A stretch of DNA of 20,525 bases from a virus: UHGV virus genome UHGV-2123520; one strand, 5' to 3'. Of this stretch, positions 5,155-7,216 are shown piece after piece; within the stretch, counting starts at the first letter, position 1, and each line of letters opens with the position of its first letter. The notes below the pieces were generated by a model, which worked only from the letters and a program-made list of their open reading frames with translations, searched no databases and had not been told where the DNA came from. The position numbers were made by a program, and so were the translations under genes.

Positions 5155-5827
5155 TCTCGGTTCCTCAACGCCTCTGCACCGGCGCTAAAAAGTTAGTTTC
5201 TCCATACACAACAGAGAAGGGCACCTGCATTGGTCGGCGGCTTGCAGAGACCGCTTTCTTTTTGCCCGGGTGGATTGGGTTATGAGCCCGTCGCCCGGTG
5301 ATGCCCTTTTCTGTTGCGTAAAAAGGGCGGTACCGAGGTAGAACATTATCTTCGGCCCCCTTGCATAAGGTTGAAGACCCTGGTACCGCCAAGACTACAC
5401 ACAGCAATACTGGAACTACGGTTATCACGGTCCTAAGCGTGATTTGGTTGTGGTGGCCGGTGCTGCGATATTCCGGCATGGGTTGATTACCAGTGACGCA
5501 CCCTTTCGGGACACTCCCTCACGGTTTAGCGCATCAGCCTGCGCATTCACCACAACGAAGAGAGCACTGCCGGTGTCCGAATTGAACGGACCTTTTCGTT
5601 GCCCATCACCGCCATCTGTATAGCGGTGGCAGGGATTGAACCTGCCGTTATGCCTTGCTCGTCAATGCTCTCGTCGTTGCGCCCTGAAAAAGGCTGGCGG
5701 TTACCGGACAAGTGGGAAAACACCGGGCCGCCAGAACAGGGAGTTACTTGTTATTGCTTTGGCCTGCTTTTAACCACATCAGGCGCGGTGGTATCTTGGT
5801 GTTCTCACACAACCAAGAGGGATGTTT

Positions 5828-6025
5828 ATGGGCGCTTTTGATAACCAGGAAATTACGTTACCCGCATGCCCTAAGTGCGGCGCTAAGACGAAGAAGAAAA
5901 TCGCTTGGCTCAAGTCGAACAAAAGTTTCACTTGTCGATGTGGAGCCACTATCAATGTCAACAGCAGCCAGCTTACTTCCGAAATCAGGAAGGTTGAGGA
6001 CAAGCTGAAGAAGCTCTTTAAATAG
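5828..6025 (+). CDS. Small zinc-ribbon protein (65 aa), function unknown
   Basis: CPKCG...x18...CRCG motif and a lysine-rich C-terminus; AAGAGGG RBS 6-7 nt before ATG 5828 (the ORF-track ATG at 5822 abuts the RBS); followed by a plus-strand hairpin plus T-run at 6053-6085. Overlaps an antiparallel ORF, so only one may be real. Confidence 0.45.
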   Translation: MGAFDNQEITLPACPKCGAKTKKKIAWLKSNKSFTCRCGATINVNSSQLTSEIRKVEDKLKKLFK

Positions 6026-6223
6026 TTTTTTATCGACTGATATTATTTCGTTATCAGGGGTTGGTTTTTCAGCCTCTGATTTTTTAGTCAGGATCATTTT
6101 TTCTACACATGTGACTACGCATTCCGAACAGATAGCAGGTTCGTCCTTACCACCTTTTGCGACGATCTTCATCGCTACCAGTTCGGTTGCTCCACAAAAT
6201 GAGCATGTGAATAAATGATTCAT
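5858..6223 (-). CDS. ORF with N-terminal ClpX-type C4 zinc finger (121 aa), function unknown
   Basis: CSFCG-x21-CSECVVTC resembles the ClpX N-terminal zinc-binding domain; GAGGT RBS 4 nt before ATG 6223; it is the first ORF downstream of the OL/pL-like region. The C-terminal half is antisense to the 5828-6025 ORF and contains the plus-strand terminator hairpin, so its true extent is uncertain. Confidence 0.35.
   Translation of the reverse strand: MNHLFTCSFCGATELVAMKIVAKGGKDEPAICSECVVTCVEKMILTKKSEAEKPTPDNEIISVDKKLFKELLQLVLNLPDFGSKLAAVDIDSGSTSTSETFVRLEPSDFLLRLSAALRACG
6053..6085 (+). terminator. Putative rho-independent terminator after the small zinc-ribbon ORF
   Basis: atcagggg (6053-6060) pairs with cctctgat (6073-6080) with one G-U pair, 12-nt loop, followed by ttttt (6081-6085). 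Confidence 0.4.
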
Positions 6224-6347
6224 GTAAACCTCTGCCCCTAACCTTAGTTTTCTGTCAGCGAATCATCCGGTCATTCATACGCCACCGGCGGCTACTTCGT
6301 GGGCGTCCTGCCTGTTCGCTGTTGATGTGAATAACGATAAATCTAAA

Positions 6348-6387
6348 TTGCGTATTGCGCAAGTAATAAATTGCGTAAAATGCAATT
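6348..6387. promoter_or_regulatory. OL-like operator cluster and probable leftward early promoter
   Basis: ttgcgtattgcgcaa (6348-6362) and the dyad aattgc-N7-gcaatt (6369-6387) share the TTGCG...CGCAA motif seen at OR; the region lies just downstream of the cI terminator, as OL/pL does in lambda. Confidence 0.5.
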
Positions 6388-6396
6388 GTCATGGCG

Positions 6397-6420
6397 AAAA
6401 AAAACCGCCTGACTGGCGGT
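6397..6420 (-). terminator. Rho-independent terminator downstream of the repressor gene
   Basis: On the minus strand: stem accgcc / ggcggt with a 5-nt loop followed by eight T; 20 nt beyond the cI stop at 6440. Confidence 0.6.
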
Positions 6421-6439
6421 TTCTGAAAGGATATATAGA

Positions 6440-7132
6440 CTAGGCGTGGCGTTTAAATGACTGAGATTGGCTTATCATTACTTTCCCGTAGACATAAAAA
6501 CGATGCTCATTCGATTTATCGACAGACCACTCTCGATATTTTGGGTTATCTGATATTACTAGCAATTGGTCTGGTATCATCTGCAAACGCTTAACATATA
6601 TTTTGTCATCAAAACCAAATACATATATACCATCGCCGTCGAATTCATGTATTGAAATATCAACGAAAATCAGGTCGCCAGGCTCAATAGTCTCTGCCAT
6701 GCTATCGCCACGAACGTTGATTACCTTCACTTGCTCAGCTGCCCGACCACCGAACATGGATAAAGCACGCTCGTTGTTGTATTCGATGGATCTGATGACA
6801 TCTATAACGTCGCTACCTTGAATAAAGCCTCCGCCAGCGCTAGCGCTAACATCAAGAATTTCCACTCTAAACACCGAGTCATCTCCAATATGTGGGGCTG
6901 TTACACTGTTTTTATATACAGTAGTTGCATTTCCACTAGGAGTAAATAGCTCAGCGACACTAACGCCTAAAGCTTCAGCATATTTACTAAGTGATTGTTC
7001 AGTAAATGACTTCTGCTTGCCGGTTTCAAGGCGAGAGATATTTGCGCCGTCGACACCGACAGCCTCTGCAAGATCAGCGATTTTCAGGCCCTTCGCAGTG
7101 CGAAGTTCTCTTATGCGGTTTCCAATATTCAT
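6440..7132 (-). CDS. CI-like phage repressor (XRE HTH plus S24 LexA-type peptidase domain)
   Basis: N-terminal HTH (IRELRTAKGLKIADLAEAVGVDGANISRLETGK), C-terminal RGDSM serine motif and downstream KR typical of autocleaving S24 repressors. Start placed at ATG 7132 (MNIGNRIRELR); the ORF track extends to 7195 through implausible N-terminal sequence. Confidence 0.8.
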   Translation of the reverse strand: MNIGNRIRELRTAKGLKIADLAEAVGVDGANISRLETGKQKSFTEQSLSKYAEALGVSVAELFTPSGNATTVYKNSVTAPHIGDDSVFRVEILDVSASAGGGFIQGSDVIDVIRSIEYNNERALSMFGGRAAEQVKVINVRGDSMAETIEPGDLIFVDISIHEFDGDGIYVFGFDDKIYVKRLQMIPDQLLVISDNPKYREWSVDKSNEHRFYVYGKVMISQSQSFKRHA

Positions 7133-7152
7133 GCGCCTATTACATGTTGTTT

Positions 7153-7216
7153 TTGCGTGATGTGCAAAGCAACTTGCGCAAGTCGTATGTTCCAATTAAT
7201 ATGCGTATTACGCAAT
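7153..7216. promoter_or_regulatory. OR-like operator cluster with divergent promoters between cI and cro
   Basis: Three dyads in the 97-bp intergenic region: ttgcgtgatgtgcaa (7153-7167), perfect 12-bp palindrome acttgcgcaagt (7172-7183), and tgcgta-t-tacgca within 7201-7216. Confidence 0.55.

Follow-up and report, generated by a model that had tools for sequence, protein, structure and literature searches.

The window analyzed here is the whole stretch of 20,525 nucleotides (nt) from UHGV virus genome UHGV-2123520, and the subject of this report is a pair of small genes lying on opposite strands of the same DNA between positions 5828 and 6223. An earlier note on this DNA had described two antiparallel, overlapping open reading frames (ORFs) there, and the sequence and the ORF listing confirmed both. 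Judged from sequence comparison, the pair is a real instance of conserved, mobile, antiparallel dual-coding genes, undescribed as far as the searched literature shows. The locus comprises the following features.

5858 to 6223, minus strand: minus-strand gene, 121 amino acids (aa) plus stop; first ORF of the early-left (pL-like) operon; annotated by the Prokaryotic Genome Annotation Pipeline (PGAP)
6101 to 6208, minus strand: ClpX-type C4 zinc-binding domain, aa 6 to 41 of the minus protein (Pfam PF06689)
5861 to 6055, minus strand: conserved C-terminal domain of the minus protein, aa 57 to 121, DNEIISVDKKLFKELLQLVLNLPDFGSKLAAVDIDS...FVRLEPSDFLLRLSAALRACG, with stand-alone homologues in other phages
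5828 to 6025, plus strand: zinc-ribbon gene, 65 aa, CPKCG...CRCG, with a Lys-rich core and a C-terminal helix
5858 to 6025, both strands: dual-coding stretch, 168 nt in exact antisense codon register
5770 to 5821, plus strand: conserved element 5' of the plus ORF, conserved at the nucleotide level with the enterobacterial module
6053 to 6085, plus strand: intrinsic-terminator-like hairpin and T-run, serving the plus transcript and lying within the linker of the minus ORF
6229 to 6233, minus strand: Shine-Dalgarno sequence AGAGG of the minus gene, read from the sequence
5794 to 6257, both strands: extent of the whole cassette, an indel relative to Escherichia phages Flotzy and Eeyore

Throughout the overlap, plus codon positions 1, 2, and 3 lie opposite minus positions 3, 2, and 1; plus codons 12 to 66 pair with minus codons 121 to 67, and the minus stop stands opposite plus Leu11 (TTA). 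What the plus ORF overlaps in the minus gene is a further domain, conserved separately from the zinc finger, and the finger itself lies outside the overlap. The minus protein begins MNHLFTCSFCG...CSECVVTC (Cys pairs C7/C10 and C32/C35), with 5 nt between its AGAGG and the ATG. The plus ORF follows the Shine-Dalgarno sequence AGAGGG (5816 to 5821), placed 7 nt before the ATG at 5828; an alternative in-frame ATG at 5822 would give a 67-aa protein, and we favor the start at 5828 on the strength of homologues and Shine-Dalgarno spacing. The earlier note had also placed the minus ORF immediately downstream of a region resembling the left operator and promoter (OL/pL), and this holds: it is the first ORF after that region and a cI-like repressor. 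Because a cI-like helix-turn-helix (HTH)/S24 repressor (6440 to 7195, minus strand), then a terminator and operator-like palindromes, precede it, the minus ORF opens the early-left operon, with rdgC further downstream.

DNA comparison covered about 45 distinct modules out of several hundred family clusters, drawn from prophages and viral contigs and spanning plus-protein identities down to about 31% and G+C contents of 0.39 to 0.65; both frames were intact in them, save for two lineages in which the plus ORF alone has been lost and a few copies with frameshifts. Loci sampled via the plus protein are unbiased for the minus frame, and those sampled via minus proteins are unbiased for the plus frame. 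Among the former, the minus frame was open and joined to a start codon in 30 of 31 loci, the exception (L039) carrying a frameshift that breaks both frames. Among the latter, a plus ORF with four Cys was kept in 7/7, and also in L127; antisense to the homologues of the minus C-terminal domain, the plus ATG, the four Cys, the stop, and about 10 nonoverlapped N-terminal codons were kept in all. At further divergent loci, down to 31% identity, the minus antisense frame was open for 89 to 292 codons (33 of 33 loci), and open stretches in the two remaining antisense registers were in most cases far shorter. In none of the loci compared was the minus frame broken while the plus ORF stayed intact; two types (L039/L052/L096 and L102) have frameshifts disrupting both. 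A metagenome scan for the module returned near-identical extra copies only, and in the isolated-phage collection the module was carried only by an unannotated fragment (KM389288). Both frames are thus intact across diverged homologues beyond chance, and of the two possibilities that the earlier note had offered, an antisense artefact or a convergent gene pair, it is the pair that stands, since homologues preserve both reading frames.

Chance figures for an open frame were obtained using lineage codon usage in 7 deep lineages. Given the plus protein, the minus frame would be open with a probability of 0.002 to 0.5 per lineage (about 7e-7 over all 7); given the minus protein, the plus frame would be open with a probability of about 3e-10 and the four Cys kept with one of about 1e-20, all of them rough products across lineages that are not fully independent. 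Conditional conservation was then measured against a recoding null (25 deep lineages, 54 gap-free codon columns). With the plus protein fixed, minus identity was 0.325 (expected, 0.235 ± 0.005; z 19), with 0 internal minus stops seen and 29 expected; with the minus protein fixed, plus identity was 0.405 (expected, 0.186 ± 0.004; z 59), with 0 internal plus stops seen and 52 expected. A stricter within-gene shuffle of synonymous codons left z at 11 for the minus frame and 35 for the plus frame.

Individual alignment columns carry the same signature from both sides. Minus Ser is encoded by AGC and TCC while the plus frame switches between Ala (GCT) and Gly (GGA), and minus Leu by CTT, CTC, CTG, and TTG while the plus frame varies among K, E, and Q; conversely, plus Cys (TGC/TGT) is constant while the minus frame varies between Ala and Thr, and plus Ile/Val is restricted to ATC/GTC, which preserves minus Asp. 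Overall, Cys, Trp, and Lys columns are held by the plus frame and Ser, Asp, Val, Gly, and Leu columns by the minus frame. On the enterobacterial tree (22 sequences), with sites classed as synonymous (S) or nonsynonymous (N) in each of the two frames, substitution rates fell in the order SS (2.0), SN (0.64), NS (0.29), and NN (0.18), and replacements in the nonsynonymous frame were more conservative than expected (P = 0.008 for SN and 0.0002). The nonoverlapped flanks show an ordinary coding pattern in each frame on this tree, with N/S rates of 0.28/0.73 for plus codons 2 to 10 and 0.47/1.43 for the 8 minus codons just before the overlap. Each frame is therefore conserved beyond the constraint imposed by the other, and these comparisons show purifying selection on both proteins.

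That the plus ORF is a mere shadow of a single real gene, the 121-aa minus gene, was our initial working model. Stops are rare antisense to a Leu/Ser-rich gene, the exact antisense register is the one in which shadow ORFs are classically seen, PGAP annotates the minus gene alone, and the first protein search gave a single, near-identical cluster for the plus ORF. Some lineages also keep the minus frame and lose the plus: L057 has a premature stop in the plus ORF with the minus frame open, and in four independent contigs (L058 to L061) the plus ORF is frameshifted and its second Cys pair lost, while the minus frame stays open and carries an in-frame 24-nt duplication; L034, with its minus ORF intact, has a plus C36Y change. 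The model was dropped once homologues were seen to keep the plus ORF together with its Cys and its start codon. The four Cys persist in all deep lineages through minus codons of NCA form only (the 1e-20 figure above), plus identity lies far above the level that the minus protein imposes (z 35 to 59), and the plus start codon and a Shine-Dalgarno-like motif are kept in 21 of 24 lineages. Besides, the 10 N-terminal codons outside the minus ORF evolve as coding sequence, with all four Ser wobble variants, stand-alone homologues of 62 to 76 aa are called as genes in 326 clusters, and the AlphaFold2 (AF2) model of the plus protein reaches a mean confidence (pLDDT) of 75. We now regard the shadow ORF as very unlikely.

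The converse alternative would make only the plus protein functional, with the minus frame translated merely to give ribosome cover against Rho-dependent polarity, its sequence being irrelevant. The minus-type ORF is co-directional with operon genes, to which it is translationally coupled unless it is fused to the gene upstream; AF2 confidence in its domain is low; the plus frame is the more conserved; and a within-position NS-versus-NN test on close relatives detected no selection on the minus frame. All of this would fit. Yet minus identity exceeds the level that the plus protein imposes (z 11 to 19), Ser (from two codon families), Asp, Val, Gly, and Leu columns are better kept in the minus frame, SN replacements are conservative, the 8 minus codons outside the overlap evolve as coding sequence, and the minus ORF is intact where the plus ORF has been lost, so that an irrelevant minus sequence is quite unlikely. 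That neither peptide matters, and that the nucleotides are conserved because the DNA or its RNA does something else (serving, e.g., as an antisense RNA regulator or a recombination site), appears extremely improbable. In its favor, several codons do not vary at any of their three positions among the enterobacterial sequences (e.g., AAG ACG AAG AAG AAA), and a conserved noncoding element with hairpins flanks the module; deep lineages, however, differ in nucleotides (G+C, 0.39 to 0.65) while keeping amino acids in both frames, the fastest-evolving sites are those synonymous in both frames, and the module has no Rfam match.

The locus is 97 to 98% identical to a prophage in E. coli Nissle 1917 and in about 40 other E. 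coli genomes. In Nissle 1917, PGAP annotates the minus ORF alone, as "ClpX C4-type zinc finger protein" (WP_016240143.1), and phrog_20296 matches the minus protein over its full length. Profile searches of the two zinc fingers proposed in the earlier note divided: the ClpX-type finger stood, as aa 6 to 41 of the minus protein scored 28.6 bits with Pfam zf-C4_ClpX (PF06689; gathering score, 27), and the plus-strand ribbon fell below the curated Lar, YnfU, and Com cutoffs. The minus N terminus carries the C4 motif CxxC-x(18-22)-CxxC, and all seven matches in a PDB sequence search were ClpX N-domains (E, about 0.1), a significant but modest resemblance on profile evidence. The 121-aa protein has no AAA+ module and is not a ClpX unfoldase; the NCBIfam ClpX equivalogs matched its N terminus only (20.9 and 14.6 bits; cutoffs, 359 and 371), and AF2 confidence in the finger region is 57 to 66. 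Proteins of 61 to 82 aa consisting of the finger only occupy the same slot in other prophages, their homology ending at about residue 41. That the rest of the minus ORF is an artefactual read-through of such a short gene was considered and ruled out by the conserved domain and the coding substitution pattern.

In a search with the whole 121-aa protein, relatives shared only the C-terminal ~65 aa (58 to 78% identity), behind different N termini: an AlpA-type HTH, a coiled coil, PF27050, or almost nothing. Because it is shared behind unrelated N termini, the C-terminal half is, on sequence evidence, a real and separately conserved domain. Most of the homologues with other N termini adjoin a cI-like repressor in the same position. 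At its simplest, the minus partner is a free-standing protein, about 90 to 105 aa long, with the whole zinc-ribbon ORF on its opposite strand and the consensus M..L.I..D....L..L...[FL]P[ED][FL]....L.....GE..V.L.PSD.L.RL..A...; scans of Pfam, NCBIfam, PHROGs, and PADLOC placed neither it nor the plus protein in a named family. At least seven different N-terminal domains are fused to the C-terminal domain, here and in relatives, and the ClpX finger is one of them. The unfoldase-adaptor activity that the earlier note had suggested cannot explain the module, since the finger is interchangeable with other N termini; the finger may modulate or target the minus protein without defining the module. 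The literature searched holds no description of a ClpX-finger phage protein or of the present overlapping pair.

The earlier note had noticed that no arginine-rich, N-like protein is encoded here, and the minus protein indeed lacks such a motif, having no Arg in its first 100 residues; it had no match to an N family in Pfam or PHROG, and nut sites were not searched for. The slot in which lambdoid phages carry N, where the note had located the pair, proved not to define it, because in other phages the same module also lies after cro, in lysis cassettes, ahead of HNH/terminase genes, or amid genes for head and tail.

Homologues of the plus-strand zinc ribbon form 326 representative clusters at an E value of ≤1e-3 in a library of 1.84 billion proteins, and most of them are stand-alone proteins of 62 to 76 aa (consensus ..FD.Q.I.IPCP.CG.KT.K.I.W[IL]K.N..F.C.CG..I..D). 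No Pfam, NCBIfam, or PADLOC family covers the plus protein. Weak profile matches were found to Lar (PF14354; E, 0.002), YnfU (NF038384; E, 0.002), and Mu Com (PF10122; E, 0.06), which resemble it in size, four-Cys ribbon, and prophage origin; its scores, in contrast, are far below the curated cutoffs (18.7 versus 28.6, 17.7 versus 36, and 13.2 versus 22.9, respectively), and functional inference from these families is unjustified. The AF2 model is a four-strand zinc ribbon with a C-terminal helix; fold searches with it against the PDB and BFVD found only generic zinc ribbons, e.g., archaeal ribosomal proteins, and the best viral match was an uncharacterized protein (E, 9e-4). A distant homologue (P0018; L101, 4001 to 4210) lies on a nonphage metagenome contig beside an IS1595 transposase gene and a GapR gene; its antisense frame runs 89 codons without a stop and retains the motif ..VKPSDGLLMLSAALRAG.., with TTG or GTG as the only start and no ATG, and this may be a case of the plus gene used alone.

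Relative to phages Flotzy (PP925827; L002, 2566 to 2575) and Eeyore, window positions 5794 to 6257 are a clean indel. The Flotzy flanks are 96% (5744 to 5793) and 85% (6258 to 6420) identical, and the inserted DNA comprises the plus leader, the zinc-ribbon ORF, its terminator, the zinc-finger part of the minus gene, and the minus Shine-Dalgarno sequence. The left junction falls directly after a small hairpin, CCACATCAGGCGCGGTGG. In related phages, then, the cassette is present or absent between conserved flanks, in the manner of a moron. In all loci examined (10 divergent loci, the window, and further homologous loci) the minus-type ORF is co-directional with its flanking genes, often overlapping the start or stop of a neighbor by 4 nt. 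It is found first after pL (here), after cro, before HNH and terminase genes, among head-tail genes, and between endolysin or lipoprotein genes and transmembrane (TM)/spanin-like genes.

Three viral contigs of alphaproteobacterial type (L110, 2070 to 3357; L119, 2103 to 4002; L097, 2124 to 4229) have the minus-type ORF in an apparent lysis cassette, with an endolysin-like gene upstream (in L097 with a lipoprotein gene between), a TM/spanin-like gene downstream, and 4-nt overlaps on both sides; these neighbors were identified by eye from the sequence. An enterobacterial subfamily (L046, 583 to 861; L069, L075, L076, L085, L090, L091, and L095) is extended only briefly at the N terminus, for a total length of about 90 aa, and retains the conserved upstream element; its L046 copy is a late-region one, flanked by a PF28015 LysA-like gene on one side and HNH/terminase genes on the other.

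The plus strand presents itself as a self-contained small gene, with an upstream element, a Shine-Dalgarno sequence, the zinc-ribbon ORF, and a terminator. The upstream element, about 50 nt long, travels with the enterobacterial module, late-region copies included. It contains a -35-like TTAACC (5770 to 5775), a small hairpin CCAC..GTGG (5774 to 5791), an extended -10-like TGGTATCTT (5789 to 5797), a hairpin CTTGGT..ACCAAG (5795 to 5817), and a CA-rich leader; the noncoding sequence CCACNTCAGGCGNNGTGGTATCTTGGNNTTCTCACACAACCAAGARGG (window positions 5774 to 5821) is highly conserved, with the same element in 55 loci. It may serve as promoter and leader of the plus gene or, read on the minus strand, as an RNA element of two hairpins situated immediately past the stop codon of the minus gene. 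Its stems showed no covariation, and an Rfam scan of the window at gathering thresholds gave no match. The candidate promoter is the conserved TTAACC-16-TATCTT with an upstream TG, and its function is putative because a consensus promoter scan does not call it. The plus-strand terminator that the earlier note had seen inside the minus ORF was recovered by scan: a hairpin of 12 pairs (6053 to 6080) followed by a T-run, the strongest of 7 sites (1.6 expected in shuffles), falling in the linker of the minus protein (aa 47 to 57). Several related modules have hairpins at the same place.

Around the repressor side of the locus, the OL/pL-like region (6340 to 6424) has operator-like palindromes at 6348 to 6362 (TTGCGTATTGCGCAA) and at about 6372 to 6388 (ATTGCGTAAAATGCAAT), and a strong hairpin at 6396 to 6424 is predicted to terminate the cI transcript. 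This segment alone is 81 to 98% identical in ST64B, SfV, SfII, SfIV, YeP1-3, phiNP, and others, and by that pattern of similarity it is a mosaic boundary of the immunity region. The mechanical ORF of the cI-like repressor starts at a TTG and has 251 aa; its Nissle 1917 homologue has 239 aa by PGAP, and the true start is probably internal. On the other side, the ~700 nt between the rdgC start and the minus stop (5155 to 5857) have no convincing gene, and none is annotated in Nissle 1917; a 104-aa minus-strand ORF (5165 to 5479) had no family match, and plus-strand terminator-like hairpins lie at 5424 to 5443 and 5575 to 5591. To reach rdgC, pL transcription would have to cross this untranslated stretch without an N-like antiterminator.

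We consider it probable, with fair confidence, that window positions 5794 to 6257 are a mobile two-gene cassette whose genes lie on opposite strands of the same DNA and which would have a state-dependent accessory role. The minus gene belongs to the lytic operon of the phage, here as the first gene after pL, and its C-terminal domain is fused to the ClpX-type finger here and occurs in relatives with other N termini or in a stand-alone, translationally coupled form. It would be driven by the repressor-controlled lytic promoter, convergently with the plus gene. Because the genes converge and overlap and pL is under repressor control, a lysogen would be expected to make the zinc-ribbon protein; upon induction, the minus protein would take its place, as lytic transcripts running across the cassette would silence the zinc-ribbon gene by transcriptional interference or by duplex RNA. 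The arrangement suggests mutually exclusive expression of the pair, lysogenic for one and lytic for the other. The likeliest role would be that of a moron-type prophage accessory, e.g., in excluding superinfecting phages or modulating the host, while the minus protein would take part in lytic growth or allow it to proceed.

Several points weigh against this reading, in addition to the roughness of the probability products given above. Support for both genes is comparative throughout, and we infer exclusion and the switch between states from geometry and one nonhomologous precedent. Some lineages can do without the plus ORF (L057, L058 to L061, and L034). The within-position test for minus selection is not significant on the close enterobacterial set, where plus position 1 transversions gave 0.205 for NS versus 0.35 for NN in a small sample. 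The AF2 model of the minus protein is poor (pLDDT, 55; <50 across aa 84 to 104), and by that model its C-terminal domain may be partly disordered. Finally, the consensus promoter scan calls no plus-strand promoter.

The only close precedent found is Pseudomonas phage Fc02, a beetrevirus, in which olg1 and gene 10 overlap antiparallel in the lysis-lysogeny region (Ramirez-Sanchez et al. 2023, PMC9936078); both products are made, in opposite states, and each gave superinfection exclusion (PMC9936078). A small ORF (7.9 kDa) transcribed in the lysogen lies antisense to an early lytic operon gene beside the repressor, much as is predicted for the present cassette. The Fc02 module is apparently not homologous to our pair, to judge by description: Olg1 is described as DEDDh exonuclease-like rather than as a zinc ribbon (PMC9936078). 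Fc02 is, moreover, a transposable Mu-like phage whose forward ORFs share the repressor transcript, whereas the plus gene here points toward cI and has its own terminator, and the present pair is a widespread mobile family known from comparative evidence.

Two stronger versions of a partnership were weighed. In one, the pair would be a strict toxin-antitoxin or self-immunity system, the protein of the complementary strand neutralizing a toxic or growth-blocking partner, possibly by binding; strict co-inheritance as a mobile cassette in prophages, opposite predicted expression states, and the Fc02 exclusion precedent speak for it. We nevertheless hold it to be unlikely, as the minus partner survives alone in two lineages and no toxin-antitoxin, PADLOC, or Pfam family was matched; the best PADLOC hit was PDC-S64, from one distant homologue and not significant (E, 0.008), so that no homology to a known toxin, antitoxin, or defense protein was found. 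In the other, the two proteins would form a functional couple: the zinc ribbon would be a lysogen effector (in exclusion, host modulation, or toxicity) and the minus protein its lytic antagonist or replacement, perhaps binding it directly, with dual coding guaranteeing both co-inheritance and mutually exclusive expression. This, too, we think improbable as a full account, next to the two-gene cassette with an accessory role that we prefer.

That cassette resembles classic prophage morons (lambda bor/lom, rexAB, P22 sieB) in being an indel between conserved flanks with its own terminator and upstream element, and in occupying classic moron sites, beside the repressor and beside lysis genes. A classic moron, in contrast, lies between operon genes, and the present one is embedded antisense inside a conserved operon gene, so that the insert codes on both strands. 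The minus finger resembles the ClpX N-domain (PF06689; PDB 1OVX and 2DS5) in its treble-clef-like CxxC-x21-CxxC motif; unlike ClpX, it belongs to a small phage protein without AAA+, is fused to an unrelated domain, and is an interchangeable N terminus. The pair is also comparable with those antisense overlapping genes in E. coli O157:H7 that have experimental support (asa, nog1, laoB, pop, and others; PMC6294744, PMC9927249), coding ORFs antisense within annotated genes that gene callers miss by annotating one frame per locus. Those genes are mostly young and taxonomically restricted, with weak or no purifying selection, whereas the partners described here are conserved to about 31 to 35% identity in hosts with G+C contents of 0.39 to 0.65 and move together.

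Whether bacteria and phages have long genes that overlap in antiparallel is contested, and accepted cases are young and narrowly distributed; most long antisense ORFs are without purifying selection, e.g., the dnaK antisense "GDH" family (bioRxiv 10.1101/724807). With deep conservation of both partners and their joint movement, the present pair would be a rare well-supported case of antiparallel dual coding. Each frame can be broken separately by changes silent in the other, and the carrier is the tractable E. coli Nissle 1917; given this, the deep conservation, and the joint mobility, the function of an antisense protein and the question of why genes overlap become directly testable. Because gene callers annotate one strand here, at least 326 zinc-ribbon clusters and their partner are systematically half-missing from databases. 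The "C-terminal domain" common to otherwise unrelated regulators (AlpA-type HTH, ClpX finger, PF27050) is explained as fusion to the module. If the two proteins do form a functional couple, the module would be an ancient, mobile, and widespread phage switch of "one locus, two states, two proteins."

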